From: Escherichia phage AV108
Strand: one strand, 5' to 3'
Length of the DNA stretch: 64,000 nucleotides
Sequence record: OR352938.1
Positions 9,837 to 37,610 of this stretch are shown here, piece after piece. The notes beneath the pieces were generated by a model, which did no database searches, was not told the DNA's origin, and saw only the letters and a list, made by a program, of their open reading frames with translations. Position 1 is the stretch's first letter, and every line of letters begins with the position of its first letter. Position numbers and translations under genes: made by a program.

Positions 9837-9910
9837 ATTTGATTCTCCTGTAAAGTTGTATCTCGTCTTGATGAATATAGTATAGGGGATCTCGCGATCC
9901 CCGTCAAGCA
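9837..9910 (-). promoter_or_regulatory. PeSL-like early promoter-leader cassette
   Basis: Minus strand: TTGAC(G) -35, GGGGATC..GATCCCC palindrome (two GATC), TATACT -10, leader ...caggagaatcaaATG. Confidence 0.55.
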
Positions 9911-9911
9911 T

Positions 9912-10439
9912 TTATTTTAAATTTTTTCGAATGTAGTCAGACCATTCCTTCCCTGTCAGTTCGGTCCCATTCTGGAAACTGAAATATTCATACGGCATCG
10001 AGTCAAGATAAAACAGGATCATACATCGCGCCATATAATACCAATCACGATTAAAGTAAACTACGTTATCACCAGTACCATCAACCCCTTTATCATAACC
10101 ATCGCGGGTACGGGCAACCCATTGAATAGTATCATTTTTCTCACGGATAGTAACAGGTTCCCAATATCCAGCACATCCAGCATGACCACACGAACAAGTA
10201 AGGAAATATTGTCCTTTTGCTTTGTTGTCATCCCATTCACGATGGATCGGTTTGATTTCGTGAAACATTGCCAAACAATCATGATTATGCAACACCGGCT
10301 TACCATCAATCAATGCATGGAATGTATACAAACGACCCGTAGACAAATAGCTATCCTCACGCTCAACCAGTTCAATAGCAATCTTTTTAGCTCGTTCTTT
10401 GTGTCGTTGTGCTTTACGCTTACGGTTTAATGATTTCAT
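9912..10439 (-). CDS. hypothetical early protein (~175 aa)
   Basis: ORF track 9912..10460; ATG at 10439 preceded by GAGGTG RBS; Cys/His-rich (CSCGHAGCAGYW). Confidence 0.5.
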   Translation of the reverse strand: MKSLNRKRKAQRHKERAKKIAIELVEREDSYLSTGRLYTFHALIDGKPVLHNHDCLAMFHEIKPIHREWDDNKAKGQYFLTCSCGHAGCAGYWEPVTIREKNDTIQWVARTRDGYDKGVDGTGDNVVYFNRDWYYMARCMILFYLDSMPYEYFSFQNGTELTGKEWSDYIRKNLK

Positions 10440-10456
10440 ATTCACCTCACACATTA

Positions 10457-10996
10457 TCAAAGGTCGCGATATAGTACATTATGAAAATGAGAACTTGCAT
10501 TACCAATATTGTAGATAATAAATTCTTCATCCGGCGCTTGCGCTACAAATTGAGTATGAGCAACCGCCACAACCTTAAAAATACGATCCGTGATCTTGTG
10601 TTTAATTTCTGCCCCTACTTCCATAGGAACATATTCATTTGTTTCTGTTTCAGTCGCAAAACAGCCATCTTCTTCATAAGCACGAACAAATCTGTCGCAA
10701 TCAGTACGCTTAACAAATTCAAGAGTATATAATTCTCGTGAATTGTCGGTATAGACCAATACAGAATTATTATGATAGCGAATCACATACAGGTTATTAT
10801 CATCGTCAATTACGCAAAAGCTACGGATTCCTTCGCCTTGACTCCAGCAGATATTAACCACCGTTCCTCTAATAAAAAAACTTTCCTTTAAATTAAAACT
10901 AGTCAATGTGCTAGCGTGCATTTTAACAACAACACCATCGCCAATTTCCAGTTTACGAATTTTAACTTCTTTGCTCAGTACACAAAACATCATCAT
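10457..10996 (-). CDS. hypothetical early protein (179 aa)
   Basis: ORF track; first gene after a promoter cassette; MMM start. Confidence 0.5.
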   Translation of the reverse strand: MMMFCVLSKEVKIRKLEIGDGVVVKMHASTLTSFNLKESFFIRGTVVNICWSQGEGIRSFCVIDDDNNLYVIRYHNNSVLVYTDNSRELYTLEFVKRTDCDRFVRAYEEDGCFATETETNEYVPMEVGAEIKHKITDRIFKVVAVAHTQFVAQAPDEEFIIYNIGNASSHFHNVLYRDL

Positions 10997-11056
10997 GTTG
11001 TCCTCTCGTTGTTTTCGATGTGAGCATTATACATTAGCTAATCATGTTGTCAACAC
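10997..11056 (-). promoter_or_regulatory. PeSL-like early promoter-leader cassette
   Basis: Minus strand: GTTGACA -35, ~16 bp spacer, TATAAT -10, leader ...aacgagaggacaacATG. Confidence 0.6.
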
Positions 11057-11059
11057 CCC

Positions 11060-11095
11060 AAAACGAAAAAGCCGACCCTTTCGGATCGGCTAAAA
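11060..11095 (-). terminator. rho-independent terminator after nrdD
   Basis: Minus strand hairpin agccgatccgaaagggtcggct followed by ttttt. Confidence 0.6.
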
Positions 11096-11096
11096 A

Positions 11097-13005: not shown

Positions 13006-13500
13006 TTATTTTACCAGTTCTGCTAATTCTTTTTCTTTAGCTTCTAGTTCAGCTTTAAGCTGTTTAATCTCTTGTCGCTTCTTATTAGCGGCTTCTTGCT
13101 TACTATTTCGGATAACCTGATCTAGATACAACTCCCAATCCTGAATATTTTTGATAATGTATCCGTCAACATTAATTGGTCGGAGATTCAGTACAGCTTC
13201 CAGTTTAGTCGCAAAAACTTTAATTGCTGGTGTGAAGTATTCATATTCGTTATCTTCAAACCAATAACCTAGACTTGCATTATCAATACGAAGACGAAGT
13301 TCAAGATCAAGGTCTTTATCTTCGGTGTAAAGATCTTTCACCTGACCCAGCGAACTAACAACAACTTTAAAACGAATTTTATCTACACCACCAAACACAT
13401 CAGTAAGTATATCAGCAATTGAGCTATTAGCGCAAGATTGGTCGCTGAATGCGTCAAGGTTTTCTTTAGTTACAGTATACCAAACATCTTGTACCCACAT
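13006..13500 (-). CDS. paralog-family protein H (164 aa)
   Basis: GYWFEDNEYEYFTPAIKVF motif; C-terminal coiled coil KQEAANKKRQEIKQLKAELEAKEKELAELVK. Confidence 0.55.
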   Translation of the reverse strand: MWVQDVWYTVTKENLDAFSDQSCANSSIADILTDVFGGVDKIRFKVVVSSLGQVKDLYTEDKDLDLELRLRIDNASLGYWFEDNEYEYFTPAIKVFATKLEAVLNLRPINVDGYIIKNIQDWELYLDQVIRNSKQEAANKKRQEIKQLKAELEAKEKELAELVK

Positions 13501-13560
13501 AATATAATCCTCTCGTTGTTAAGTGGGAGTATTATAGCATACTCCCTTCGCATGTCAAGC
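13501..13560 (-). promoter_or_regulatory. PeSL-like early promoter-leader cassette (variant with gaggattatattATG leader)
   Basis: Minus strand: TTGACA -35 overlapping stop of upstream gene; TATAAT -10 inside inverted repeat gggagta..tactccc; RBS GAGGA. Confidence 0.55.
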
Positions 13561-14733
13561 ACTAACTTTTTTCTTTACTGCTTTCACCTTCTGGCGAATT
13601 GCTCGAATCTCTTCGATCTCTTTTTCAGTATCTTTAACAATTTCTTTGCGATTCTGAATATCTTTATCGAGATTATCATCAAGTTTAGGCAGCATGTCAA
13701 TCAAGAACTTTTTAAGGTCTTTCAGGTTGCGAATAACAGTACCTTCACCCATTACCGCCACGCCTACACCATCCGGCAGATCACCAAACAGTTTAACCAG
13801 TTCAGACAGATGATCATGATCTTCTAGTGCTTCTTCCGGTTCAGATGGCAGTTCAACAAAGTAATAACGTTCATCATTGCTGATCAGGTGATACCAGCAA
13901 AGCCCAAAAGATTTAGGAGTATATTCTACACCACCAACTTCAACTGCGTCAACACTTCCGAAAGAATCTACTTTAGTTACCTTAAATCCATGTTCCAGCG
14001 TTTTAATAATTTCAATAACATGACTGGATACGGTTTCAGTATTAAACCAATGAGGCAAATTATGTGGATTTGGCTTGTATCGTTCGCCTACTTTAAATCT
14101 CTGACCACGCTCTTGCATACGGACATATTCAACTCGCGTGATTTCCGCGAAGTATTCAAATTCGCTACCGTCAAACAAGCAATTCCATTGATCACAAAAA
14201 CGATCCGCCTTGACGGTTTCACCTTTCGCGGTGATCATGGTAGCTGATCCGTGCAATTCTTCTTCAACTAAAAAGCCATATTCGACAAAATCAACAAGTT
14301 TCATGGCTTCTTTGTGCTCTGGGTCATGCTCTCCCCAGAATCGCTTAAATTCTTGCAAACCTTCTGGGGTAAACGAATAACATTTACCTTTTTCAAAGTA
14401 AGTCGGCATTGCATCCTCTTTCTTGTTCATCGCTTCGTATGCCTCTTTTGAGATACGTTTAAAGTATTTGCGCTCATTGTGCATAATCATAGTAGACCAA
14501 TAATAAACGATATCCTCAGCGGAATAAACTACATCTCCAGCTTCAATAGTAATAACATGACCGTGGTCATCTTTTTCTAATACTTTAAAGCCCTTTTCTA
14601 CGATTTCAGCAACCCGAATATGACCACGGCGCGAAGCATCGGTCAGAATAATTGAATAGCGAGAAAAGTCTAGAAACTCATCTTTACCGCCTTCACGGAA
14701 TGCATAGTAATGACCTTCAAAGAATTTAGCCAT
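13555..14733 (-). CDS. paralog-family protein G (392 aa; three tandem copies of the family domain)
   Basis: Three repeats: YYWSTMIMHNERKYFKRI, QWNCLFDGSEFEYFAEI, CWYHLISNDERYYFVEL; KGFKV/HGFKV motifs; charged C-terminal tail. Confidence 0.55.
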   Translation of the reverse strand: MAKFFEGHYYAFREGGKDEFLDFSRYSIILTDASRRGHIRVAEIVEKGFKVLEKDDHGHVITIEAGDVVYSAEDIVYYWSTMIMHNERKYFKRISKEAYEAMNKKEDAMPTYFEKGKCYSFTPEGLQEFKRFWGEHDPEHKEAMKLVDFVEYGFLVEEELHGSATMITAKGETVKADRFCDQWNCLFDGSEFEYFAEITRVEYVRMQERGQRFKVGERYKPNPHNLPHWFNTETVSSHVIEIIKTLEHGFKVTKVDSFGSVDAVEVGGVEYTPKSFGLCWYHLISNDERYYFVELPSEPEEALEDHDHLSELVKLFGDLPDGVGVAVMGEGTVIRNLKDLKKFLIDMLPKLDDNLDKDIQNRKEIVKDTEKEIEEIRAIRQKVKAVKKKVSA

Positions 14734-14805
14734 AATATAATCCTCTCGTTGTTTAGATGGGAGTATCTTACTACTCCCGTTTCATCATGTCAAGCGTTAA
14801 ATGAC
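14734..14805 (-). promoter_or_regulatory. PeSL-like early promoter-leader cassette
   Basis: Minus strand TTGACA -35, inverted repeat gggagtagtaagatactccc around the -10, gaggattatattATG leader. Confidence 0.55.
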
Positions 14806-15374
14806 TTTTGGATCTCTTTCAGTTCAGCTACTTTATCGGCGCTGAATTTAGCGTAGGTATCATGTCGAATAATTTCACTTTCAAGAAAGGTTTCCAGCCG
14901 AGATCTATTTTCAATAAGGAACTCTTTCAGGTCTTCCGCGTTCTTGATAAAGATTTTATTGTCAGTAATGTCATCTTCAATCGCAAAGGAGATAGAGCGA
15001 ACTTTACCAAACAAGTTAATCAGATCTTCCAGAGATTCTTCTTTCTTAACTGGTTTCATTTCTTCAAACTGCTTTTTAGTGATGCGTTTAAAGTATTTGC
15101 GCTCGCTTGCATCAATCATGATTGATGCACCCTCATAATCATGAGTTTCTACCAAATACACTTTACCCATAACATTAACCGTAAGAACTTTAAAGCCCCT
15201 GTGAAGCACACCATACAGGAACTTGTTATGTTGTGGGTAGCGTTTAACAAATTCCTCTGCGGACTTAGCATTACGGAAAGTGTAATAACGACCTCGTTCA
15301 AAAACAGCATCATTTGAAGACTTAGCCGGATACAATTTATACGTTTTCTGTACCATAATATAATCCTCTATCAT
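14790..15374 (-). CDS. paralog-family protein E (194 aa)
   Basis: RGFKVLTV, IMIDASERKYFKRITKKQ; helical C-terminus. Confidence 0.55.
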   Translation of the reverse strand: MIEDYIMVQKTYKLYPAKSSNDAVFERGRYYTFRNAKSAEEFVKRYPQHNKFLYGVLHRGFKVLTVNVMGKVYLVETHDYEGASIMIDASERKYFKRITKKQFEEMKPVKKEESLEDLINLFGKVRSISFAIEDDITDNKIFIKNAEDLKEFLIENRSRLETFLESEIIRHDTYAKFSADKVAELKEIQKSFNA

Positions 15375-15382: not shown

Positions 15383-15643
15383 TTAAACAGCACGGAACAG
15401 AATGCGCTCACACGGAAGCAGCATAAATTCCCAACGCGGGTCAAAGTCTTTAGCGGTGTATGTTTTCCCATCAACCGCTATTTCACTTACATAACCAACA
15501 GGTGACACTTTAAGAACAGTAAACCCGTTCTTGATGACTTCGTAGGTATCTTTCACCCCTTCGTATTCATCATCTAAGAAGTCTTTATGTGCTTGCTCAG
15601 ATTTAAAAACATAGGCCACACCGGATTTAAACATCTTACGCAT
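15383..15643 (-). CDS. paralog-family protein F (86 aa; single domain, no tail)
   Basis: GVAYVFKSEQAHK, NGFTVLKV, AVDGKTYT, RWEFMLLPCERILFRAV. Confidence 0.5.
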   Translation of the reverse strand: MRKMFKSGVAYVFKSEQAHKDFLDDEYEGVKDTYEVIKNGFTVLKVSPVGYVSEIAVDGKTYTAKDFDPRWEFMLLPCERILFRAV

Positions 15644-15706
15644 TGTTGATTCTCCTTCTTGATTAGATGGGAATATTTTACTACTCCCATTTCATGTTTG
15701 TCAACT
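15644..15706 (-). promoter_or_regulatory. PeSL-like early promoter-leader cassette
   Basis: Minus strand GTTGACA -35, hairpin gggagtagtaaaatattccc containing TAAAAT -10, leader aggagaatcaacaATG. Confidence 0.55.
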
Positions 15707-15707
15707 A

Positions 15708-16181
15708 CTATCTTAATCTTTGTATGAATTGTTTCTTATACTTCTTCGTGATTTCTTCTCGTGTATCAGCGTCGCAGTAATCGAAACCTTCTGCGTCCAT
15801 AATATCAACCATCTCCGCGCGTGTCAAGCGTGAAAATCGTTTTACTTTATCAACAGCATATTGAGGATGTAAATGATTGTTGGTGTAGTCTCCTTTGATG
15901 TAATTAACATAGTTTGTAGCCCAAACAACGAAATCAGCACCTAAAGCACCAACACCAAACCGTTTAAAGTCTCCGGTCAACGATCCTTCTAGGCGGTTGC
16001 AACACGAATGAAGCAATCCCCTTACGCGGCCTTGCCCTTTCCCATCTAGATCATGATCATGGTCAAGATGGTTTTTGCTCATATCCTCAAAAAGTGGCAA
16101 TTGACAAAGGGGGCAAATGCCCCCCTGTTTTTCGAATAGTTCTTGTTTGTACTCTTTAGCACTCTTAGCAGTCAGTAACAT
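15708..16181 (-). CDS. 49: endonuclease VII (Holliday-junction resolvase gp49)
   Basis: ATG at 16181 gives 157 aa MLLTAKSAKEYKQ...CPLCQ...NHLDHDHDLDG...VRGLLHSCCN..., matching T4 gp49 (157 aa) as recalled; GGAGGGTG RBS. Confidence 0.85.
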   Translation of the reverse strand: MLLTAKSAKEYKQELFEKQGGICPLCQLPLFEDMSKNHLDHDHDLDGKGQGRVRGLLHSCCNRLEGSLTGDFKRFGVGALGADFVVWATNYVNYIKGDYTNNHLHPQYAVDKVKRFSRLTRAEMVDIMDAEGFDYCDADTREEITKKYKKQFIQRLR

Positions 16182-16495: not shown

Positions 16496-17308
16496 TCAAT
16501 CTACGTTAGTTACATAAACTTCTTGCGTATCAGAAGACTTGCCACCTGAACGATCTAGGCAATAGGTCTTATTCAACAGGACGCAGTTTAGATCATTCCG
16601 CTTGATAAAGTCAAGAAGATGATCATTTACCTTTCCCTTATGATGCGTGACATTACTGATACCAAACTGAAAACCACGCGCCATAATAGATTCTACCCAC
16701 TGATAGAATTTAATCTCTTCCTCGTCACTCCAGAACTTATTATATTCCGCAGAAGTGATAAGATACGGCGGGTCCAAATAAACGAAATCACCTGGCAAGA
16801 TCTCGATCTCGTCATATCGTCCAGAAGTAAAAATGATTCGACCGTCTTTGTTTTCTTCCTTAAAATTCAGGACACGCTCTACCGCGTTTTCGTTAAAAGT
16901 CCGGCGACCAAAATTAGCATTAAATTCTCCCTTTCGGTTATGGCGGTTAATGTTGCTAAAACTGTGCTGAATCAACACAAACAGCGATAGCGGATCTGGA
17001 TTCTCGTTATACTTCTTACGAAATGTCATGTAAGCGTCTTTATCTTCGCGAGACAAATCATTTTCGGCAATAATCCGCTTGATCGTAGAAACCGGATCAG
17101 GACACTCGTCAATCGCTTTGTACGCGTCAATTAAGCGGTGATCATAGTCATTAGCCAGCACATCCCCTTCGACGTACAGAGACACGCTCAAGCCTCCACA
17201 AAAGGCATCAACAAAGCGGTTATAGTGCTTAGGGAAATACTTACTAACACCTGGCAATAGCTTTTCCTTATTGCCAGTATAGGGAATTAAACCTAATGCT
17301 TTCTTCAT
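16496..17308 (-). CDS. dam: DNA adenine methyltransferase Dam (GATC, D12 class)
   Basis: 270 aa; FVDAFCGGLSV (AdoMet motif I) ... DFVYLDPPYL (motif IV DPPY); colinear with T4 Dam as recalled. Confidence 0.88.
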   Translation of the reverse strand: MKKALGLIPYTGNKEKLLPGVSKYFPKHYNRFVDAFCGGLSVSLYVEGDVLANDYDHRLIDAYKAIDECPDPVSTIKRIIAENDLSREDKDAYMTFRKKYNENPDPLSLFVLIQHSFSNINRHNRKGEFNANFGRRTFNENAVERVLNFKEENKDGRIIFTSGRYDEIEILPGDFVYLDPPYLITSAEYNKFWSDEEEIKFYQWVESIMARGFQFGISNVTHHKGKVNDHLLDFIKRNDLNCVLLNKTYCLDRSGGKSSDTQEVYVTNVD

Positions 17309-18275: not shown

Positions 18276-18543
18276 CAAGATTGTGTCGCAGCATTTCAGA
18301 GTATTTTTCTACTTCCTTAATCTTAGTGTGGATATCCACGATCTCATCCACACTATCAGAAATTTTAATGGCATTCGCGAGCGTGCTTTTACCCGCTTTC
18401 ACAGTCTCTTTCATTTCAACCAACATGTCCGCGTGTTTCAATAGTAATTCTTCACGTCGAACATAAGCGGCGGTCAAAGCCTCATCAGCGATTTCTAAAG
18501 CATTTTCAGCGACACCAACAACCATTTTACGAGTAGACAGCAT
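18250..18543 (-). CDS. hypothetical early protein (97 aa, helical)
   Basis: ORF track. Confidence 0.45.
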   Translation of the reverse strand: MLSTRKMVVGVAENALEIADEALTAAYVRREELLLKHADMLVEMKETVKAGKSTLANAIKISDSVDEIVDIHTKIKEVEKYSEMLRHNLDELGANHG

Positions 18544-18557
18544 AAATTCACCTCACA

Positions 18558-18866
18558 TTATTTCACGTTAACGCCGTCATCAATCCAGCCGACGCTATTG
18601 GGTTTAACAGTTTTACCATAGGATGCATACTTAATCAAGCATGGTTTAACATCATTATCAAATCTTCCTAAACGTACTCCCAAATCAGGAATATCCATGT
18701 ATGCGGCTTTATATCCCCATGTACCGTATTCAGAATCAATCTCAACCGGACGGCCTTTAAAAGCATACACTACACCGTGACGGTCAACGATAACATAGCA
18801 ATAACCAGCCGGAAGATACACAGTTTCGCCGTAAACTTTAACTGGAGTAGCAGAAGAGATAAACAT
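18558..18866 (-). CDS. hypothetical early protein (~102 aa)
   Basis: ORF track 18558..18902; ATG at 18866 directly follows the gaggattatatt leader of the promoter cassette. Confidence 0.5.
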   Translation of the reverse strand: MFISSATPVKVYGETVYLPAGYCYVIVDRHGVVYAFKGRPVEIDSEYGTWGYKAAYMDIPDLGVRLGRFDNDVKPCLIKYASYGKTVKPNSVGWIDDGVNVK

Positions 18867-18932
18867 AATATAATCCTCACATCGTTCATTTGATGCGGTC
18901 ATTATATGATAACCGCATTTTCATGTCAACAG
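18867..18932 (-). promoter_or_regulatory. PeSL-like early promoter-leader cassette
   Basis: Minus strand TTGACA, 17-bp spacer, TATAAT flanked by inverted repeat gcggt..accgc, gaggattatattATG. Confidence 0.6.
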
Positions 18933-18936
18933 TTTT

Positions 18937-19275
18937 TTAAAAATCTTCTTCCGGTTTATATCGACCGTCATCGACTGGTTTTGGACTGAATCCTTTATGC
19001 GTGCGCGGCTTCGCTTCCGGTTTACCAGCAATCATCAAACCAAAACATTTCAGCCCCTTATAACACATAACAATATCAACCACGGTCCACGTTATAGGCC
19101 ATACGATTGCAGCAATACAAAATGCTCCTGTATCGACCTCTTTGGTGTCCTTGTCGAATCTGGCGTACAAGCAGAATACTAGATACGAGATCATTGCACC
19201 AGTAGTCCAGATATAAAGCACATTAACAATATCTTGTGTTGTCACATTATCCTCCTTACATGTCTTGCAGTGCAT
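18937..19275 (-). CDS. small membrane protein (start uncertain)
   Basis: ORF track 18937..19359; hydrophobic segments AMISYLVFCLY and FCIAAIVWPITWTVV; several candidate ATGs. Confidence 0.4.
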   Translation of the reverse strand: MHCKTCKEDNVTTQDIVNVLYIWTTGAMISYLVFCLYARFDKDTKEVDTGAFCIAAIVWPITWTVVDIVMCYKGLKCFGLMIAGKPEAKPRTHKGFSPKPVDDGRYKPEEDF

Positions 19276-19537
19276 AAAAGCATTTTTCTTCATAGTCATA
19301 GAAAATGTCAAAGTATGCCTTTTCCACATACTCGCCATTAATCCAAGCGGCAGTAACAATCAGAGTGGTCCAGTTAGATCCGCTCTCAACGGTAAAGGTT
19401 TTAATACCCAGCTTCGCTGCCAAGTCGAACGCAAACCGGACGCAACCACGACAGGAAGTGATATTGGAAGTTTTGATTTTAAAGCCACCGCGAGTTTTAG
19501 AAATTTCTACTTTAGCGAAAGACAGGTTGCTCATTTT
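19256..19537 (-). CDS. hypothetical early protein (93 aa)
   Basis: ORF track 19256..19591; ATG at 19537 directly follows aggagaatcaaa leader. Confidence 0.5.
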   Translation of the reverse strand, partial: KMSNLSFAKVEISKTRGGFKIKTSNITSCRGCVRFAFDLAAKLGIKTFTVESGSNWTTLIVTAAWINGEYVEKAYFDIFYDYEEKCFYALQDM

Positions 19538-19607
19538 GATTCTCCTTAAAAAAGTGTGTTTCGTTTTGATGTGTGTAGTATAGGGGATCACCGATCCCCT
19601 GTCAACA
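19538..19607 (-). promoter_or_regulatory. PeSL-like early promoter-leader cassette
   Basis: Minus strand GTTGACA, palindrome ggggatcggtgatcccc (two GATC), -10 TATACT, leader cgaaacgaaacacac...aggagaatcaaaATG. Confidence 0.6.
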
Positions 19608-19613
19608 ACTTTT

Positions 19614-19943
19614 TTATGATTTTAGTGAATTAACCACTACATCAAAATGATGTACAGAGCACACCTTACGAAACACATACTCATCATGTTTAGGGGTCGC
19701 CCCCAACCTCTCTATTTCGCTCGCCATAACGACAAACTGTTTATCTGGTGCATATGCCTTGTGTGCTTCAACAACGCACGGAAAACGCGTTTTAGAGAGT
19801 TCTGGATAGTTTTCTGAATCCAGAAGGACGATGAATACCCTATTACATTGATTGTAGAATCCGGTTTTTGATTTCATCAAGTTTTCTTCTCTGTGCAATT
19901 CGTGCAATCTTCCTTTCATGATTTCGTTGGTTCCTGTCTTCAT
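19614..19943 (-). CDS. hypothetical early protein (109 aa; overlaps upstream ORF by ~100 nt)
   Basis: ORF track; long out-of-frame overlap with 19843..20181. Confidence 0.4.
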   Translation of the reverse strand: MKTGTNEIMKGRLHELHREENLMKSKTGFYNQCNRVFIVLLDSENYPELSKTRFPCVVEAHKAYAPDKQFVVMASEIERLGATPKHDEYVFRKVCSVHHFDVVVNSLKS

Positions 19944-20181
19944 AGTCTACCCACTCAACAAGATCTTTACCTAACTCGAAAGCCCATTCTCGATCCTGCT
20001 TTACGTTTTGTAGGTATGAGCTTTCCGACACTCGACGAAGTGATGTTGTCGTAACAAGAATGATCTCAGGAATGGTCGGATGTTCTTTTCCATATACAAT
20101 AGGACGCGAGTCACTATCAATACCTTGTAAGAAGGTGTATCCTGAATCACTTAGAATCATATACTTTTTCATTTCACACAT
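19843..20181 (-). CDS. hypothetical early protein (~112 aa)
   Basis: ORF track 19843..20184; ATG overlapping the stop of the upstream gene; GAGGAA RBS. Confidence 0.45.
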   Translation of the reverse strand: MCEMKKYMILSDSGYTFLQGIDSDSRPIVYGKEHPTIPEIILVTTTSLRRVSESSYLQNVKQDREWAFELGKDLVEWVDYEDRNQRNHERKIARIAQRRKLDEIKNRILQSM

Positions 20182-20438
20182 CACAGTTTCCTCAACCAGT
20201 TATTCAAGCGAGTAAACCATGATGCTTTTCGTGCTTCTTTTACTTTATGTGCACGTAAACCACTGAAACACCATTCATAATCATCACTGAAACATGATTC
20301 AACAGGAACACCCGCATTTCGTAGTTCTCTGGTCTTTATCATGAATCCTTGACATAAGGGGCGACCTTCAACAATGATAGGAAGTTTAACTTTTTCCATG
20401 AAAGTATACCCAGCACGGTCAATAATTTCAATTTTCAT
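20181..20438 (-). CDS. hypothetical early protein (85 aa)
   Basis: ORF track. Confidence 0.45.
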   Translation of the reverse strand: MKIEIIDRAGYTFMEKVKLPIIVEGRPLCQGFMIKTRELRNAGVPVESCFSDDYEWCFSGLRAHKVKEARKASWFTRLNNWLRKL

Positions 20439-20682
20439 TTACATTATCTCCATAGATCTTTCCAGCAATATCAATTTCACCAGCGCGAACATCTAGGATA
20501 AGATGCGGTAGGTGTATGCAGTTTTCCCACCCTACGCGCTTCATTTCTTCTACGGTAACGTAAGCCCACCCGTTCGCTGTAATAAAGTCTACTTCAACCT
20601 TGAGAGGAAAGCAAGACTTTTCTATGTCTTCGAATCCGACAATATGTTTTGTTGTTGAATATGGAATATATCCGGTGATCAT
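20428..20682 (-). CDS. hypothetical early protein (84 aa)
   Basis: ORF track. Confidence 0.45.
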   Translation of the reverse strand: MITGYIPYSTTKHIVGFEDIEKSCFPLKVEVDFITANGWAYVTVEEMKRVGWENCIHLPHLILDVRAGEIDIAGKIYGDNVNEN

Positions 20683-21113: not shown

Positions 21114-21123
21114 TCTATATTCC

Positions 21124-21331: not shown

Positions 21332-21622
21332 TCAAATGGTAGTTTTGCGAAGATGGTCATTACATGCTTTTAATGCATCAGTCGCGGTGTCATAGCGAGT
21401 ATTATCATAGCACCAATAACCATCTGTCAACTGATAAATTAATCCATCCTTTTTAGCTTCGATGAAAGATAACTCTTTGAAAGTTTCTACTTTCTTTGCT
21501 GATACTCCACGGTCACGGCGTTTATAGAGTTTAGCTAAAATGCGTTCAGCTTGTTCCTCTTTATCACCTGACAGATCCCAGATGATGTTTCGGATATGCT
21601 TGATTAATTGTTCAGTGGTCAT
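21332..21622 (-). CDS. hypothetical early protein (96 aa)
   Basis: ORF track; first gene after a promoter cassette. Confidence 0.5.
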   Translation of the reverse strand: MTTEQLIKHIRNIIWDLSGDKEEQAERILAKLYKRRDRGVSAKKVETFKELSFIEAKKDGLIYQLTDGYWCYDNTRYDTATDALKACNDHLRKTTI

Positions 21623-21681
21623 CTTTGATTCTCCTTAGTTGGTATGCGTGCATTATAGCATTGTGATTATCTTTGTCAACA
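21623..21681 (-). promoter_or_regulatory. PeSL-like early promoter-leader cassette
   Basis: Minus strand GTTGACA -35, CATAAT-like -10 (tatagcataatgc), leader ...aggagaatcaaagATG. Confidence 0.6.
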
Positions 21682-21689
21682 CCCAAAAA

Positions 21690-21717
21690 CAAAAAAAGGC
21701 TACCCCGAAGGATAGCC
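21690..21717 (-). terminator. rho-independent terminator after the Gly-rich gene
   Basis: Minus strand ggctatccttcggggtagcc hairpin followed by tttttttg. Confidence 0.6.
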
Positions 21718-21725
21718 CATAAAAA

Positions 21726-22556: not shown

Positions 22557-22779
22557 TTAGATGATCTCTGCTTCACCATTCAGGAAGAAAGACCATGTTT
22601 TGTTAGGATAGCGAAGCGCCCATGATTCAGCAGTTTTAACACCCGCTTCGAACAATTGACGGCTGGTTACTTTAGCCATACCATCGAAGATGGCAACGTT
22701 TTCAATAATCATCGGGTACTTAGCGCCACGCATGAAACCGAAACCAGCGGAAGATTTGATAATTTTAACAGTTGCCATT
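22557..22779 (-). CDS. hypothetical early protein (~74 aa)
   Basis: ORF track 22557..22850; ATG at 22779 directly after aggagaatcaaa leader. Confidence 0.5.
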
Positions 22780-22849
22780 TTGATTCTCCTAGAAAGTGTA
22801 TCTCGTTTCGATGGGTGTATTATGCAATAACACCGGATCGCTGTCAACA
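22780..22849 (-). promoter_or_regulatory. PeSL-like early promoter-leader cassette
   Basis: Minus strand GTTGACA, one GATC in spacer, -10 CATAAT-like, leader cgaaacgagatacac...aggagaatcaaaATG. Confidence 0.6.
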
Positions 22850-22864
22850 CTTTCTAAGAAATTT

Positions 22865-23831: not shown

Positions 23832-24030
23832 TCTTCACGGTCTCCATAATTGTTTTGTAAGCCAGTTTAAGATGATCACCGAAAAACTTTGCGGTGTTAC
23901 CCTTCGGATCGCGGAGCATGGTTTCTACGATCTCATCGGCAGTAACAATTTCTCCTTTCTTTGCTGCATGTTCTACCATATACTTCAAAGTTTCTTCGGA
24001 AGCAAGTGCTGCCGCTACTGGATTAATCAT
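23821..24030 (-). CDS. hypothetical early protein (69 aa)
   Basis: ORF track; first gene after a promoter cassette. Confidence 0.5.
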   Translation of the reverse strand: MINPVAAALASEETLKYMVEHAAKKGEIVTADEIVETMLRDPKGNTAKFFGDHLKLAYKTIMETVKNAK

Positions 24031-24091
24031 TTTTGATTCTCCTTTGTTGTCGATATGTGCATTATGCTATACCCTATTCCGGTTGTCAACA
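24031..24091 (-). promoter_or_regulatory. PeSL-like early promoter-leader cassette
   Basis: Minus strand GTTGACA, tatagcataatgcac -10 region, leader ...aaaggagaatcaaaaATG. Confidence 0.6.
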
Positions 24092-24097
24092 CCTAAA

Positions 24098-24130
24098 AAC
24101 GAAAAAGCCACCCTTTCGGATGGCTTTTTG
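24098..24130 (-). terminator. rho-independent terminator downstream of the Dps-like gene
   Basis: Minus strand agccatccgaaagggtggct hairpin followed by ttttcgttttt. Confidence 0.6.
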
Positions 24131-26852: not shown

Positions 26853-26867
26853 AATATAAACCTCTCA

Positions 26868-27227
26868 TTAGTCACGGGAAGACAACCCAGCCATAAAACG
26901 GCTTAACAGTGTGTCGCGATAAGCAAAGCATAATTGCTTATCAGGGGCAGTATCACAAAGGTTGCGTTTTGTTTTAGCAAAGCTGGCAATACTCAGATCC
27001 CACGCTCGATTTTTTCGTTTTTCGTCTCGACCTTGTTTGTATGCTTCGTCGAGTTCAAGTGCGATAAAATCACTACACATGTTATCATCATCACAGAAAG
27101 TTTTAATGATCTTTTTGTTGATCTCAAATCCTTTGTATTCGAACTTTGGATAAGGGCGCTCATTACTAGCAAGCGCACCAGCCGAGAACATCATAGCAAT
27201 CATAGCAATTATTGTCAACTTTTTCAT
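26868..27227 (-). CDS. secreted/periplasmic protein with signal peptide (119 aa, 4 Cys)
   Basis: MKKLTIIAMIAMMFSAGALA-SNE signal peptide. Confidence 0.55.
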   Translation of the reverse strand: MKKLTIIAMIAMMFSAGALASNERPYPKFEYKGFEINKKIIKTFCDDDNMCSDFIALELDEAYKQGRDEKRKNRAWDLSIASFAKTKRNLCDTAPDKQLCFAYRDTLLSRFMAGLSSRD

Positions 27228-27234
27228 ATATTCC

Positions 27235-35552: not shown

Positions 35553-35630
35553 AATTTGATTCTCCGTTTAAGAAAGTGTGTTTCGTTTCGATGTGTGTAT
35601 TATGCTATAGGCCGGATCTGGTGTCAACAA
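35553..35630 (-). promoter_or_regulatory. PeSL-like early promoter-leader cassette
   Basis: Minus strand GTTGACA, one GATC in spacer, tatagcataatacacac -10 region, leader cgaaacgaaacacac...cggagaatcaaattATG. Confidence 0.6.
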
Positions 35631-35657
35631 CTTTTTTTTAAAAAATTTTAGGCAATA

Positions 35658-35685
35658 AAAAAGCCACTCCGAAGAGTGGCTTATA
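35658..35685 (-). terminator. rho-independent terminator
   Basis: Minus strand gccactcttcggagtggc hairpin followed by ttttttatt. Confidence 0.6.
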
Positions 35686-35832
35686 GGGAAGGTAGCGAAT
35701 CTTCCTTGTCTCCAACCTGCTAGCGGCCTAGCAAGTTAATGCTTTAGCGTACCGGATCGCCCACATACGCTGTAATAAATGCGGCTAGGTGACGTCCAAA
35801 TCATTCTAACCGCGCTGTCTTTAGTTCACTAT
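35686..35832 (-). ncRNA. candidate small non-coding RNA (between a TATAAATA motif and a terminator; no ORF)
   Basis: ~150 nt minus-strand interval with internal hairpins (TGCTAG-gccg-CTAGCA; GGAAG..CTTCC) and no plausible ORF with an RBS; bounded by late-promoter-like TATAAATA (35833-35840) and the terminator at 35658-35685. Confidence 0.3.
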
Positions 35833-36050
35833 TATTTATATCGCTTTCTCTCGCGACGTTTTTGATCTTCTTCCTTGATAGAGTTAAATGCATCAAAAAG
35901 ACACATGACACTAATAATAAACATAACCGTATTTTCTACGATATCCCACGGCTTCGCATCAGTACAGATCCCCCAAACGGTAAGAAATGCAAATAAGGCA
36001 GAAGAGATCACAAGCAGGATACTTGCTAAGATATAAAAAGTCATTTTCAT
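35832..36050 (-). CDS. small membrane protein (72 aa)
   Basis: Two hydrophobic helices; basic C-terminal tail QKRRERKRYK. Confidence 0.45.
   Translation of the reverse strand: MKMTFYILASILLVISSALFAFLTVWGICTDAKPWDIVENTVMFIISVMCLFDAFNSIKEEDQKRRERKRYK
35833..35840 (-). promoter_or_regulatory. T4-type late promoter motif TATAAATA
   Basis: Plus-strand tatttata, i.e. TATAAATA on minus, overlapping the stop of 35832..36050 and facing the ORF-free gap. Confidence 0.35.
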
Positions 36051-36241: not shown

Positions 36242-36465
36242 TTCGGTCGAGTCTTTTCAAACTTATACATTCCGTAACAATCTCGAATCATCCACGTAAC
36301 AAGAGCACCAGTCAACACAGACAATACACAGAAGAAGTAAAACGGTCCGGTTGCATTATCAACATGAGCAAGCCAGGTAAAGAAAACACATGCAAGGAAT
36401 GTAAAGAACATCATAAAGCACAAGAAAGCGAAATATTTTATACTACTCATAGCGCCACCATACAA
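36226..36465 (-). CDS. small membrane protein (79 aa)
   Basis: Two hydrophobic helices; basic C-terminus. Confidence 0.45.
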   Translation of the reverse strand: MYGGAMSSIKYFAFLCFMMFFTFLACVFFTWLAHVDNATGPFYFFCVLSVLTGALVTWMIRDCYGMYKFEKTRPKWGKR

Positions 36466-36739
36466 CAGATCATAAGAAACCCCAACGCAATAAGAATTGC
36501 GTCAAATTTAGTGAACTCCGGTCCACCTATCAACATCATTCGTTCCTGTTCATTCATAGATCACAGAGCCATCTGAAAGCACCACATAAAGCGAGCAGAA
36601 TACTAGGTATAAACGAGACTAAAACAAGTTGGCAAAAATCATCTAAGGTAACACCGGAATAGCTACCTACTGTAACAACACCGATCATCAGACACAGAAA
36701 GAAAACAAATGCAATCAGAAACAAAGTATTGCTAAACAG

Positions 36740-36943
36740 TTAGTGATCATTAGACACCCCACGACGATCAATTTCAAAAACTTTTTTATCATCAACGAAG
36801 CATGTCACAACTGCCTCGTTGACTTCCGCAAATTGTTGTGTTACCCACTTAAGGTCAGAGCGAAACAATGTTCTATTAATAACAAATGTTTTACCGCTCT
36901 TATCCTTACCCATAAATTTTGCTTTAACCATATCCAATTCCAT
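36740..36943 (-). CDS. hypothetical early protein (67 aa)
   Basis: ORF track. Confidence 0.4.
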   Translation of the reverse strand: MELDMVKAKFMGKDKSGKTFVINRTLFRSDLKWVTQQFAEVNEAVVTCFVDDKKVFEIDRRGVSNDH

Positions 36944-36952
36944 ATTATCACC

Positions 36953-37111
36953 TTATTTGCTAATCGCTAAACCCAATCCGAAGAGAGCACCCGATGCTAC
37001 AGTATACCCGAAAGTTTCAAAGGCAGTAAAGATATCTAAGCCACCAGCTAACAGAGTTGCAGTAAACAGAGTACCAGCTACGAACATAAAAGTTTTACCG
37101 ATAAATTTCAT
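36953..37111 (-). CDS. small hydrophobic peptide (~52 aa; coordinates approximate)
   Basis: Hand translation MKFIGKTFMFVAGTLFTATLLAGGLDIFTAFETFGYTVASGALFGLGLAISK; ATG directly follows the aggagaatcaaa leader. Confidence 0.4.
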   Translation of the reverse strand: MKFIGKTFMFVAGTLFTATLLAGGLDIFTAFETFGYTVASGALFGLGLAISK

Positions 37112-37173
37112 TTTGATTCTCCTTTCGTTTGTTTGTGGGGGTATCTTACTACCCCCGTTTCATGTTGTCAACT
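37112..37173 (-). promoter_or_regulatory. PeSL-like early promoter-leader cassette
   Basis: Minus strand GTTGACA, hairpin gggggtagtaagataccccc containing TAAGAT -10, leader ...cgaaaggagaatcaaaATG. Confidence 0.55.
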
Positions 37174-37177
37174 GTTT

Positions 37178-37552
37178 TTAAGAAAATTTTACTTCGTCTA
37201 CAATGTCTTTCATGACATTGATTTCCATTCCGGTCAGAACACGTTGGAACATGTGCTGCACATACGCTTTCAGGTATTCATTTGATGGCTTACTATCGAA
37301 AGTCTTTTTAGTGTAGTAGTCATCACCGAAAGCTACTGTAATTACATTTTCGTCGTCGTTCCAAGCGATATAAGCAAATTTGCCGTTATCCCAGAAGCGA
37401 GCACTAATTGCTACTTTTGTTGAATCGAATCCTACTTCGCTGTGAGATTCAAGAACTACTTGCGTGCCAGTTTCTTTATGAATGTAGTAGCGGGATACTA
37501 AGTCAAAGTTACGGGTGTAGTGACATTCGAATTTATCTTTAAACATCATCAT
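37178..37552 (-). CDS. hypothetical early protein (~125 aa)
   Basis: ORF track 37178..37621; ATG triplet (MMM) at 37552 directly follows aggagaatcaaa leader. Confidence 0.5.
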   Translation of the reverse strand: MMMFKDKFECHYTRNFDLVSRYYIHKETGTQVVLESHSEVGFDSTKVAISARFWDNGKFAYIAWNDDENVITVAFGDDYYTKKTFDSKPSNEYLKAYVQHMFQRVLTGMEINVMKDIVDEVKFS

Positions 37553-37610
37553 TTTGATTCTCCTAAGTGTGTTTCGTTTCGATATGTGCATTATGCTATA
37601 GTCGTTTATG
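37553..37610 (-). promoter_or_regulatory. PeSL-like early promoter-leader cassette
   Basis: Minus strand GTTGACA - 17 bp - CATAAT, leader cgaaacgaaacacacttaggagaatcaaaATG. Confidence 0.6.

Follow-up and report, generated by a model that had tools for sequence, protein, structure and literature searches.

The repeated promoter-like cassettes of a Krischvirus genome are PeSL units, each with a single stem-loop

Introduction

What are the short units, each resembling a strong promoter and often carrying an inverted repeat, that recur in front of genes on one strand of this phage DNA, and what does the repeat in them do? Here, we address these questions in the 64-kb stretch analysed (hereafter, the window). 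The original prediction was that the units are cassettes of the promoter-early-stem-loop (PeSL) type and that hairpins and GATC palindromes at the -10 element form an additional layer of control, either an operator or a methylation-sensitive switch. PeSLs were defined in phages phi1 and RB49, with 52 and 51 copies, respectively, and were sorted by stem-loop position into 5 subclasses, the commonest of which have the stem-loop between -35 and -10 or overlapping the -10 box (Arbiol et al. 2010, PMC2839356). In the same study, PeSL206/205 yielded ~13,000 Miller units, and the stem-loop of PeSL211/210 cut lacZ expression about as much as rrnB T1. For RB49, the predicted early-promoter consensus agrees with 5′-end mapping (Nolan 2006). 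We are highly confident that the cassettes in the window are the PeSLs of a Krischvirus (RB49/phi1/JSE-like), combining a promoter, an insulating stem-loop and a RegB-matching leader that are proposed to work as modules.

Results

The window contains 17 cassettes, of which 16 are minus-strand (9834-37632) and the last is plus-strand (52558-52631). The same set was recovered by a regular-expression scan, by nhmmer and by a covariance model trained on nothing but the sequences of the aligned copies. The model returned matches at E values from 1e-9 to 1e-16 (the weakest, 1.4e-9), with conserved flanks extending beyond the sigma-70 hexamers, and no further match at E<=0.01 across the whole window. 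The expectation of at least 16 copies was borne out, the plus-strand copy lying outside the range originally considered; the minus-strand copies lie within that range, although the -35 (37618-37613) and terminator (37655-37635) of the first fall just past its end at 37610.

All cassettes are intergenic and cover the ~75-90 bp between the stop codon of the preceding gene and the ATG that follows, each terminating at the start codon of a phi1-annotated gene. They consist of TTGACA/G, a 16-18 nt spacer, a TATAAT-like -10, the start region CATCGAAAC and a Shine-Dalgarno leader reaching the gene start. The 20 nt 3′ of the -10 read ACaC.CATC.AAAc, with 12-17 of the 17 copies agreeing per conserved column, the predicted +1 is an invariant A across the 17 aligned copies, and the 20 nt 5′ of the -35 are 74% A+T compared to 60% window-wide. 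The sequence GGAGAATCAA occurs exactly 11 times, 10 of them inside cassettes. The conserved leader that had been predicted holds insofar as all copies carry a Shine-Dalgarno leader, but GAGGATTATATTATG is not specific to cassettes: it has 13 occurrences at <=2 mismatches, mostly at promoterless genes, and is thus a general ribosome-binding region of this phage. That region, and the fact that the hexamers are the best-conserved blocks, are what one would expect if unrelated sigma-70 promoters had merely converged on a strong consensus. We give this scenario virtually no credence: columns outside the hexamers are conserved too, GGAGAATCAA is nearly exclusive to cassettes, and the model finds exactly 17 matches in 64 kb with nothing intermediate, unlike a generic consensus scan, which gives 80 sites per 20 kb. 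The model matches and the conserved flanking columns refute convergence.

The Krischvirus phages JSE, RB49 and phi1 are 97-98% identical to the window (20000-30000 compared), and, judged by sequence, its source is a Krischvirus genome, that is, an RB49-like T4-type coliphage. Model search and locus comparison place the same cassettes at matching positions in phi1, RB49, GEC-3S and JK32, most of them already annotated as promoter, -35, -10 or terminator in the GenBank record of GEC-3S, and the stem-loop of PeSL211/210, the palindrome GGGGATCggtGATCCCC, is identical to that of window copy 19605. Given the shared positions, these are orthologues rather than look-alikes, so that the identification as PeSLs of RB49-like phages was correct; the repeated units are the published cassettes, and the observation, although right, is ordinary and already known.

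The position of the stem-loop divides the cassettes into 3 classes. In 6 of the 17 (class A), an upstream terminator, canonical in the 5 minus-strand copies, takes the place of a hairpin. On the minus strand, cassette 37618 (37550..37632, 56.8 bits; -35 at 37618-37613, -10 CATAAT at 37595-37590, predicted +1 at 37583, ATG of the phi1 ORF125 homologue at 37552) lies directly downstream of an intrinsic terminator at 37635..37655 (ACCCCGAAAAATTTTCGGGGT, then a T run), and RNA folding detects no internal hairpin in it (z -0.39). Cassette 35627 (35550..35641; -35 at 35627-35622, -10 CATAAT at 35604-35599, ATG at 35552; z +1.05), with a long leader and one spacer GATC, follows a terminator at 35661..35682 (AAGCCACTCTTCGGAGTGGCTT, then a T run), and cassette 24089 (24028..24103, 57.1 bits; -35 at 24089-24084, -10 CATAAT, ATG at 24030; z -0.41) one at 24102..24129 (GCCATCCGAAAGGGTGGC, then a T run). 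Cassette 21679 (21620..21693; -10 TATAAT, predicted +1 at 21645, ATG at 21622; z +0.19), downstream of the gp38 adhesin gene, has its terminator at 21697..21718, and cassette 11053 (10994..11067; -10 TATAAT, ATG at 10996; z -0.07), downstream of nrdD, at 11070..11091 (AGCCGATCCGAAAGGGTCGGCT, then a T run). The plus-strand cassette (52558..52631, 51.8 bits), located after baseplate gene 8 and before two small ORFs and a methyltransferase-like gene, has a terminator-like hairpin, AAGCCAA...TTGGCTT, and a T run just upstream, where a terminator is annotated in the record of phage G2494.

The inverted repeats originally noted at or around the -10 are real: 8 straddle the hexamer (class B) and 3 lie in the spacer (class C), all on the minus strand. 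In class B, GGGGGTA/TACCCCC encloses the -10 of cassettes 37171 (37109..37185; hairpin 37156-37137, -10 TAAGAT at 37148-37143, predicted +1 at 37136, ATG at 37111; RNA fold -14.0 kcal/mol, z -3.13) and 28734 (28671..28748; hairpin 28718-28699, -10 TAATAT, 18-nt spacer with one GATC, ATG at 28673; z -2.18). Cassette 34665 (34592..34679) has an 8-bp hairpin, GGGTGTAT/ATACACCC, at 34652-34631 around CATAAT (ATG at 34594; -14.8 kcal/mol, z -3.15), and cassette 15704 (15641..15718) has ATGGGAGTA/TATTCCCAT, with one G·U, at 15690-15667 around TAAAAT (ATG at 15643; z -3.01). Three further members carry GAGG-type leaders: cassette 18929 (18864..18943; ATGCGGTTAT/ATGACCGCAT, with one U·G, at 18918-18893 around TATAAT, ATG at 18866; -14.7 kcal/mol, z -4.06), cassette 14793 (14731..14807; GGGAGTA/TACTCCC at 14778-14759 around TAAGAT, ATG of the frd.2 homologue at 14733; z -3.28) and cassette 13558 (13498..13572; GGGAGTAT/ATACTCCC at 13546-13525 around TATAAT, ATG at 13500; z -3.22). 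Cassette 22847 (22776..22861; one spacer GATC, ATG at 22778) is a degenerate member with a bulged hairpin, GGTGTtAT/ATACACC, at 22834-22814 that folds weakly (-8.3 kcal/mol, z -0.25). Class C comprises cassettes 35358 (35298..35372; AGGGGAG-gataa-CTCCCCT at 35353-35335, -10 TACAAT, ATG at 35300; -19.4 kcal/mol, z -5.39), 19605 (19532..19619; palindrome AGGGGATC-ggt-GATCCCCT with two GATC at 19600-19582, -10 TATACT, ATG at 19534; z -1.98) and 9907 (9834..9921, 35.9 bits; -35 TTGACG, palindrome GGGGATC-gcga-GATCCCC with two GATC at 9902-9885, -10 TATACT, ATG at 9836; z -2.43).

Each cassette thus has a single stem-loop, which is an upstream terminator or else a hairpin embedded in the promoter, and never both (Fisher p=5.7e-4). 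The cores of class A are unstructured (z -0.41 to +1.05 for the 5 minus-strand copies; MFE -3.3 kcal/mol for the plus-strand copy), and 10 of the remaining 11 copies fold at -12 to -19.4 kcal/mol with z of about -2 to -5.4; the exception, 22847, combines its weak hairpin with the lack of an upstream terminator. A perfect stem of >=6 bp is found in 7% of random 40-mers of this genome and in 10 of the 11 cassettes (binomial p=4e-11). The right arm of most class B hairpins stops 1 nt short of the predicted +1.

The stems are under selection for base pairing. Among 5 genomes, 5 of 150 stem columns vary, compared to 27 of 142 in the rest of the spacer, 9 of 22 in loops and 1 of 84 in the -10 (p=1.8e-5), that is, the arms are conserved among relatives as strongly as the -10 itself, and the changes that occur are compensatory or produce G·U pairs. 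Paralogous arms vary and yet stay complementary (GGGGGTA/TACCCCC, GGGAGTA/TACTCCC, GGGTGTAT/ATACACCC, GGGGATAT/ATATCCCC), with 95% of cells paired compared to 62% in column shuffles and with compensatory differences. Within the core stems, 5 interior pairs are G·T and none is A·C, a bias suggesting that the folding form is the sense strand or RNA.

The leaders fall into two types. Of the 16 minus-strand leaders, 12 contain GGAG without GAGG, and 9 of these 12 read GGAGAATCAAA; the remaining 4 of the 16 are GAGG leaders without the RegB motif. A GGAG-only Shine-Dalgarno is enriched at cassette genes (12/16, compared to 14/54 other genes; p=7.6e-4). The strong-site consensus of T4 RegB/S1 is GG*AGRAYARAA (Uzan & Miller 2010, PMC3014915), and GGAGAATCAAA agrees with this T4-derived consensus at 10 of 11 positions, with one mismatch. 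The window encodes regB itself (PF10715, E=1.5e-48); the RB49 enzyme is a diverged family member whose own Shine-Dalgarno is GGAU (PMC3014915). Judging from the motif match, the leaders with this sequence are putative targets of RegB cleavage.

Discussion

We propose that the early promoter of each module, which is close to consensus and consists of an A-rich upstream tract, TTGACA and a TATAAT-like -10, would attract host RNA polymerase carrying sigma-70, and that the conserved A of CATCGAAAC would be the first base transcribed. For this genome, promoter use and +1 positions are predicted by analogy; the literature is the source for the activity of the promoters, for termination at the spacer-type stem-loop and for mini-circles. 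Because the right arm mostly stops 1 nt short of the +1 of its own cassette, the single G+C-rich stem-loop would form only in RNA reading through from the upstream gene. Insulation of the unit would come about either because read-through is terminated or attenuated at the stem-loop or because the stem-loop caps the upstream message at its 3′ end; the element is a canonical terminator in front of the -35 or, where intergenic space is minimal, a hairpin located within the spacer or enclosing the -10. The module would further supply a leader that is short, has little structure and bears a strong Shine-Dalgarno sequence, and, given how closely this leader matches the site of the RegB endoribonuclease, early messages could be switched off quickly. 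Finally, because ~80 nt are common to the copies, the cassettes may double as homology patches for recombination between gene modules. In this window such a role does not seem prominent, as gene-content differences from relatives are mostly homing-endonuclease insertions and other indels that do not end at cassettes. In Krischvirus LF73P4, a synteny break lies inside a cassette matching window copy 19605 and phi1 PeSL211/210; this junction is possibly an assembly artefact at a 90-nt repeat.

What the embedded hairpins do is the point at which other explanations deserve the most attention. None of the class B or spacer hairpins passes a standard hairpin-plus-U-run terminator scan, the sequence after the eight -10-straddling hairpins being AUCGAAAC (1 U in 8) and that after the spacer hairpins being UAUACUAC; given this result, and with the published experiment made only on a spacer-type stem-loop, a terminator role for class B is putative. 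It is conceivable, albeit not our favoured view, that embedded hairpins are RNA 3′-end caps or decay insulators rather than terminators, with RegB or RNase E cutting the downstream leader and 3′ exonucleases trimming back to the hairpin, such that the upstream message is stabilised independently of its neighbour. The lack of a U run in class B, the sense-only wobble pairs, the presence of one hairpin per cassette regardless of type and a RegB-like site 25-45 nt downstream all fit this possibility, whereas the drop in downstream lacZ expression caused by the spacer-type stem-loop, as large as with rrnB T1 (PMC2839356), fits termination or attenuation; moreover, capping refines the insulation model rather than truly competing with it, the class B case being putative in either. 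That the stem-loops instead act mainly as DNA hairpins or cruciforms, serving as recombination or template-switch sites that mobilise gene cassettes as mini-circles, with transcription secondary, appears unlikely. Exact loop inversions between orthologues, as expected from hairpin-templated switching, were observed at 9907 (gcga in the window, tcgc in RB49, OZ035808, with the other 84 nt identical) and at 19605 (ggt in the window, acc in JK32); the LF73P4 junction lies inside a cassette, one breakpoint falls at the +1 of cassette 21679, Endonuclease VII is encoded nearby, and mini-circles as well as sequencing blocks at stem-loops have been reported (Arbiol 2010, PMC2839356). However, with 7-8 bp the arms are short for extruding a cruciform, the wobble pairs (5 G·T, 0 A·C) favour one strand or RNA, cassettes are absent from most indels of the window, no dedicated recombinase is known, and homology across the whole ~80-nt cassette suffices for T4-type recombination without any hairpin.

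The remaining possibility, that the inverted repeats are operators of dimeric repressors and/or that the GATC palindromes make the promoters sensitive to Dam methylation, is the control layer of the original prediction, and we regard it as highly improbable. The palindromes do lie across the -10 or occupy the spacer, 5 of 17 spacers contain GATC where 0.9 would be expected (10 of 5000 spacer shuffles reach 5), the same part of the phage genome codes for a D12-class Dam methylase (16496-17308), and the GGGG...CCCC motif has been speculated to be a protein-binding site (Arbiol 2010, PMC2839356). Nevertheless, arms that change while keeping complementarity and tolerating G·T indicate a folded strand rather than a sequence-specific protein site, and the hairpins occupy 3 different registers relative to the hexamers, with an upstream terminator replacing them in 6 copies. 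As for methylation, none of the -35 or -10 hexamers of the 17 cassettes contains GATC, CATG is commoner than GATC in spacers (7/17), and the genome as a whole is rich in GATC, with 365 sites where base composition predicts 230. Across 6 genomes, GATC was gained or lost at 28734, 24089 and 22847 and halved at 19605 with stems intact, so that its presence is polymorphic at 3 of 6 loci, and partly at a fourth, among relatives >94% identical; furthermore, since phage and host each supply Dam, the sites are not expected to occur unmethylated. Variable arms, multiple registers and GATC turnover thus leave the operator or methylation layer unsupported, and a hairpin around the -10 is in itself not new, being among the commonest subclasses listed in PMC2839356.

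Within the insulated-module interpretation, the anatomy and number of the cassettes, their orthology to the published PeSLs, the selection acting on pairing and the match to the RegB site are observed here, and the function of the hairpins straddling the -10 and RegB cleavage of the leaders are inferred. To the published description we add the one-stem-loop rule, the conservation of arms with compensatory or G·U changes, the turnover of GATC and the match of the leader to the RegB consensus.

In the early promoters of coliphage N4, the DNA hairpin itself is recognised by the virion RNA polymerase; small promoter hairpins are common to both systems, but the -35 and -10 of the window cassettes are duplex elements of sigma-70 consensus type, and a promoter hairpin is missing altogether from one third of the copies. 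Composite promoter and stem-loop units also occur in T4/PST and KVP40/nt-1 and at the internal-protein loci of T-even phages, where they flank variable genes and a part in modular shuffling has been proposed for them (Comeau, Arbiol & Krisch 2014, PMC4122927); these authors consider the motifs analogues, not homologues, of PeSLs. The units have T4-type early promoters (GTTTAC) and weaker, A/T-rich stems, in contrast to the sigma-70 consensus, G/C stems and different leader of the window cassettes. Like T4 RegB/S1 sites, GGAGAATCAAA occupies the Shine-Dalgarno region of early genes, with cleavage here predicted. Lambdoid morons and integron gene cassettes, a likeness drawn by the PeSL authors themselves, are likewise small accessory genes travelling with their own expression signals and insulation; however, morons lack a conserved flanking repeat and integrons rely on an integrase and attC sites, whereas in the present case it is the conserved promoter cassette that is proposed to serve as the homology patch, with no known recombinase. 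The closest relatives are the PeSLs of phi1 and RB49 (PMC2839356), where RegB, Dam and the one-stem-loop rule are not discussed in these terms. They belong to the same genus, are found at orthologous sites of the same hyperplastic region (phi1 ORF053 to ORF125) and share one layout, in which an A/T-rich tract containing the stop codon is followed by a consensus sigma-70 promoter and then by the Shine-Dalgarno sequence and ATG, with a poly-G/poly-C stem-loop in one of several positions. Nothing essential separates the two sets, which differ by a few percent of sequence, loop flips, and gains and losses of GATC.

The cassette family and its genomic setting

Profile searches resolved a coherent family of early-promoter cassettes, in agreement with the original prediction of at least 16 units resembling promoter-early stem-loop (PeSL) elements. 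A simple regular expression for the -35 and -10 boxes returned ~17 similar units, and an nhmmer profile built from 15 seeds recovered these seeds together with a plus-strand copy at 52.6 kb and a weak copy at 9.9 kb. A sequence-only covariance model, derived from the aligned copies after trimming to their start codons and applied to the window at a cut-off of E<=0.01, yielded exactly 17 matches, every one with E<=1.4e-9: 16 within 9834-37632 on the minus strand and one at 52558-52631 on the plus strand.

The -35 element is TTGACA in 16 copies and TTGACG in the remaining one, and in all 17 a spacer of 16-18 nt leads to a TATAAT-like -10 that agrees with the consensus at 4-6 of its 6 positions, A2 and T6 always being kept, i.e., a sigma-70-consensus early promoter. 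Conservation extends beyond the hexamers. The 20 nt 3' of the -10 follow the pattern ACaC.CATC.AAAc, with 12-17 of the 17 copies agreeing at each conserved column and an invariant A at the predicted +1. On the other side, the 20 nt 5' of the -35 have an A+T content of 74%, against 60% for the window, with the recurring motif ...TAAAAAAGTTG TTGACA, and GGAGAATCAA occurs exactly 11 times in the 64 kb, 10 of them within cassettes. At their 3' ends, all 17 cassettes run into the Shine-Dalgarno sequence and start codon of a gene that has an annotated counterpart in phi1. Because the copies share so much besides the two hexamers, they cannot be reduced to generic sigma-70 promoters. By contrast, GAGGATTATATTATG, originally taken for a cassette leader, is found 13 times with <=2 mismatches (0.3 expected), mostly at promoterless genes, and is a general translation initiation region of the phage rather than a part of the cassette.

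By GC skew, the gene strand of the window is minus from 1 to ~44 kb and plus beyond. The interval 20000-30000 is matched by 75 phage records, the closest being Krischvirus JSE (98.0%), RB49 (97.1-97.8%), pEJ01 (97.3%) and phi1 (97.1%). Mapped via the phi1 annotation, the main cassette range corresponds to the accessory-gene region from nrdG to gene 57B, which contains nrdD, endonuclease VII, dam, gp38, rI, tk, vs, regB, dmd and ~60 small ORFs; by Pfam, 27911-28333 encodes RegB (E=1.5e-48) and 16496-17308 a D12-class adenine methylase. Sixteen cassettes lie in this region, among phi1 ORF053-ORF125 (a hyperplastic region of small ORFs), and the 17th is inside the baseplate module, ahead of two ORFans. 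A scan of the whole window against Rfam at gathering thresholds returned no family, and ARAGORN found no tRNA. Outside the genus Krischvirus, a scan of IMG/VR with a pattern combining promoter and start region returned 3 contigs with single weak model matches, and this way of searching detected no cassette family there.

The plus-strand cassette places an early-type promoter in the late baseplate module, ahead of two ORFs without a Pfam match and a gene for a methyltransferase-like protein of 279 aa (52629-54045, plus strand). The latter, which matches the MTS and Eco57I-methylase domains and contains an NPPF motif, would join Dam as a second methyltransferase.

One stem-loop per cassette

Copies are named here by the window coordinate of the first -35 base. 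A clear stem-loop is present in 16 of the 17, taking the form of an upstream terminator in 6 and lying within the spacer in 3 and over the -10 in 7; the exception is copy 22847, with a weak bulged stem straddling the -10. A canonical terminator, hairpin plus T run, precedes five minus-strand copies (37618, 35627, 24089, 21679 and 11053), and the plus-strand copy also has an upstream terminator, annotated at the same site in phage G2494. The promoter cores of the five terminator-preceded minus-strand copies are unstructured (z -0.41 to +1.05). The 11 remaining copies lack an upstream terminator and carry an inverted repeat inside the promoter itself. Eight of these hairpins straddle the -10. 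In seven of them the arms measure 7-10 bp, the loop is 6 nt long, and the stem takes in the final 1-2 bases of the hexamer; the eighth is the weak one of 22847. The other three fill the spacer, with GGGGAG..CTCCCC at 35358 and GGGGATC..GATCCCC at 19605 (cassette 19532-19619, minus strand) and 9907 (9834-9921, minus strand). Ten of the 11 embedded hairpins fold at -12 to -19.4 kcal/mol (z -2.0 to -5.4); 7% of random 40-mers of this genome contain a perfect stem of >=6 bp, compared with 10 of 11 here (p=4e-11). Upstream terminators and embedded hairpins are distributed in a complementary manner (Fisher p=5.7e-4), so that the logic of one stem-loop per cassette is strict.

Most of the -10-straddling hairpins stop exactly 1 base before the predicted +1, so that the transcript of the cassette itself cannot fold in this way; the structures are formable only in read-through RNA from upstream or in single-stranded DNA. 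A hairpin directly followed by a U run is found only in the five minus-strand upstream hairpins and in the one before the plus-strand copy, and a terminator scan of the coding strand returned none of the 11 embedded hairpins. The straddling hairpins are followed by AUCGAAAC; after the spacer hairpins comes UAUACUAC or UUAUAAU, a partial U/A tail that is provided by the -10 box. In favor of termination or attenuation, insertion of the stem-loop of phi1 PeSL211/210 reduced lacZ expression to an extent comparable to rrnB T1 (Arbiol et al. 2010, PMC2839356), and this stem-loop, GGGGATCggtGATCCCC followed by TTATAAT, is the same palindrome as in copy 19605. Extension of this result to the eight straddling hairpins is an extrapolation, because the published reporter used a stem-loop of the spacer type. 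For the straddling hairpins, pausing, attenuation or capping of the 3' end of the upstream message are at least as plausible as termination.

On the opposite strand, the -10-straddling hairpin of copy 37171 (37135-37158, plus strand) leads into a T-rich tract, TTTCATGTTGT, and scores as terminator-like in the scan, so that some embedded hairpins might also halt antisense transcription. Two more intergenic hairpins, both G+C-rich, have no cassette promoter: GGGGAGA..TCTCCCC at 31590-31648, ahead of an ORF starting at 31586, and a two-way terminator-like hairpin, GCGGGTAGT..ACTACCCGC, at 32873-32897.

Two non-coding stretches of the minus strand adjoin cassette terminators. One, of ~180 nt (35655-35840), is conserved, lies between the ORF 35832-36050 and the terminator 35682-35661, and is non-coding also in phi1, GEC-3S and JK32. 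It starts with TATAAATA, a T4-type late-promoter motif present 4 times in the window, always in intergenic positions, and its fold comprises three hairpins in addition to the terminator (-61.4 kcal/mol, z -3.38, a stability reached by 0 of 200 shuffles). It matches no Rfam family at threshold and is a candidate late small RNA. The other (24138-24353), upstream of the terminator of copy 24089, has an unusually strong fold (z -4.19), and its slot is occupied in relatives by the small ORF084.1 (phi1) or a 2139-nt gene (JK32).

Folded strand or protein-binding site

The original prediction interpreted the hairpin-embedded -10 and the GATC palindromes as an operator or a methylation-sensitive control layer, and the two possibilities can be weighed against the variation of the cassettes. 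For a Dam-regulated promoter speaks the presence of GATC in the spacers of 5 of the 17 copies, compared with a mean of 0.9 in shuffled spacers (a count of 5 was reached in 10 of 5000 shuffles). However, CATG is commoner, in 7 of the 17 spacers, GATC is abundant genome-wide (365 sites, with 230 expected from base composition), and two of the five GATC-bearing spacers have palindrome arms that happen to include the self-complementary tetranucleotide. None of the 17 copies has a GATC inside the -35 or -10 hexamer, all sites being confined to spacers, and the sites are polymorphic among orthologues: GATC is present in 3 of six near-identical genomes at locus 28734, in 2 of six at 24089 and in 4 of six at 22847, and at 19605 two sites are reduced to one in three of the six with the stem retained. 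Neither the spacers of the 17 copies nor the six genomes gave evidence of selection for the site, and for this reason the methylation switch is unsupported.

What is conserved is the pairing. Among five genomes, 5 of 150 stem columns and 1 of 84 positions in the -10 hexamer vary, against 9 of 22 loop positions and 27 of 142 other spacer positions (p=1.8e-5). The few stem changes among orthologues retain pairing via wobble pairs: opposite GGGAGTA at locus 15704, the right arm reads ATTCCC, GCTCCC or ACTCCC, and opposite GCGGTT at 18929 it reads GACCGC or AACCGC. Arms of paralogues differ with full compensation (GGGGGTA/TACCCCC, GGGAGTA/TACTCCC, GGGTGTAT/ATACACCC, GGGGATAT/ATATCCCC). The register of the hairpin is itself variable, differing by 1 nt between the 'tagTAAGAT' and 'tatagCATAAT' copies and by many bases in the spacer class; a MAFFT structural alignment of the straddling hairpins aligned them on the -10 and left two subgroups off by one column, a shift that persisted despite artificial anchors. 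Covariation was therefore counted on hairpin-centred sequences rather than on a single alignment. Paired cells amount to 95% in these sequences, against 62% in column shuffles, a figure that is partly circular because the hairpins had been pre-selected for stems; the enrichment of stems (10 of 11) and the pattern of orthologue substitutions are the non-circular tests. In the core stems, G·T pairs occur 5 times independently and A·C never (p about 0.03), which suggests that the sense strand is favored, most simply as read-through RNA. The substitutions thus point to purifying and compensatory selection on the stems. Together with the wobbles and the shifting register, selection on pairing argues for an insulating structure at the RNA level and against a sequence-specific operator, which would have to accommodate arms that vary while pairing is kept, tolerated G·T pairs, and a hairpin that is dispensable where a terminator sits upstream.

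Recombination and loop inversion

Comparison of the window with phi1, GEC-3S, RB49 (OZ035808) and JK32 showed that indels are mostly homing-endonuclease genes (29914-30511 in the window and JK32; others in GEC-3S, RB49 and JK32), the further cases being a 77-nt repeat-bounded ORF and the variable slot 24138-24353. No indel in this comparison ends in a cassette; the slot abuts the terminator of copy 24089. Contrary to expectation, differences in gene content mostly end outside cassettes, being HNH endonuclease insertions and the 77-nt direct-repeat indel. The 197-aa ORF at 29910-30503 (minus strand), annotated as an HNH endonuclease in JK32, is absent from phi1, GEC-3S and RB49 and thus represents a homing-endonuclease-type insertion between nrdC.11 and vs.6. 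A terminator (30546-30523) is directly followed by a ribosome-binding site with no promoter. RB49 and JK32 carry a 644-nt insertion at window position 31664-31688.

A different picture is offered by Krischvirus LF73P4 (OZ035795), where synteny with the second hyperplastic region of phi1, up to PeSL211/210, gives way to synteny with the window from 19531 onward. The large-scale switch takes place inside one 94-nt cassette that matches both sides (LF73P4 21846-21939) and leads from the alt/ORFan region to that upstream of window 19531. A second breakpoint lies at window position 21646, beside the predicted +1 of cassette 21679; here, 37 nt (LF73P4 23965-24003) stand in place of the gp38 segment (window 21647-22556). 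These junctions fit cassette-mediated exchange; an assembly error at a repeat could also explain them.

Finally, two hairpin loops are inverted between orthologues, each being the exact reverse complement of its counterpart: gcga in copy 9907 (9885-9902) vs tcgc in RB49 (OZ035808, 9636-9723), and ggt in copy 19605 (19582-19600) vs acc in JK32 (18533-18616). The rest of the cassette is identical or nearly so in both pairs, and the flips appear to be the footprint of hairpin-templated switching in DNA.

Leader sequences and a possible expression module

Strong sites of the T4 RegB/S1 endonuclease system conform to the consensus GG*AGRAYARAA and lie in the translation initiation regions of early genes, and RB49 regB has a GGAU Shine-Dalgarno that is cleaved in vivo (Uzan & Miller 2010, PMC3014915). 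Nine cassette leaders contain GGAGAATCAAA, which matches this consensus at 10 of 11 positions, and the regB gene of the window has GGATAATAAAA at 28343-28333. At 23-40 nt the leaders are short, and their structure is weak (MFE -1.6 to -9.6 kcal/mol, with 33 nt of coding sequence included); the unpaired probability of the leader GGAG, 0.2-0.8, is uninformative. A GGAG-only Shine-Dalgarno is found in 12 of 16 cassette-driven genes vs 14 of 54 other minus-strand genes (p=7.6e-4), which mostly have GAGG. We infer that most cassettes carry a built-in, putative RegB shut-off site.

These observations can be combined into a speculative scenario in which cleavage at GGAGAATCAAA would time the shut-off of the cassette-driven ORFan genes, the promoter-embedded hairpins would not truly terminate transcription but would serve as 3'-end caps or insulators of the upstream message, and extrusion of the palindromes in DNA would be frequent enough to account for the loop flips and to seed the recombination that moves cassettes. 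That all three hold jointly, making the cassette an 'on, insulated, then off' module, we consider rather unlikely. The PeSL paper makes no mention of RegB (Arbiol et al. 2010, PMC2839356), and none of the three components was found in the PeSL papers examined.

Relation to published PeSLs

PeSLs were defined from 52 copies in phi1 and 51 in RB49 and divided into five subclasses by the position of the stem-loop, which lies 5' of or over the -35, within the spacer, or over or 3' of the -10, the commonest positions being between the two boxes or overlapping the -10 (Arbiol et al. 2010, PMC2839356). They often have a poly-G...poly-C stem-loop, the upstream stop codon usually falls within an A/T-rich tract, and they are located mainly in hyperplastic regions, before small ORFs of unknown function; PeSL206/205 has a promoter activity of about 13,000 Miller units, and recombination between cassettes, including mini-circles, has been reported (Arbiol et al. 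2010, PMC2839356). The cassettes described here agree with this definition in promoter, A/T tract, stem-loop, Shine-Dalgarno and start codon, location, and homology. The covariance model matches the phi1 and RB49 elements themselves: each relative covering the region has 16 orthologous, nearly identical matches (15 parsed for phi1), the second hyperplastic region of phi1 has 18 more, and most of the orthologous sites are annotated as promoters and terminators in the GEC-3S record. The predicted early-promoter consensus of RB49, with T or C at -12 and C's at -3 to -1, fits 5'-end mapping, and this phage is without a middle-promoter system (Nolan et al. 2006).

Thus, the PeSL identification holds, by membership and orthology, and the hairpin-embedded -10 is real, yet already included in the published subclasses. 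The further idea of an operator or a methylation-sensitive layer is unsupported. Given that both the cassettes and this feature match those of Arbiol et al., the original prediction is a correct rediscovery of a published element. The one-stem-loop rule, the selection on pairing, the sense-strand wobbles, the RegB-like leader and the loop flips are incremental additions, possibly of interest for gene expression in T4-type phages and for the engineering of therapy-relevant coliphages. Ultimately, a published class of mobile regulatory cassettes proved recognizable from raw sequence, and the copies in the window are members of this class rather than a new kind of element.
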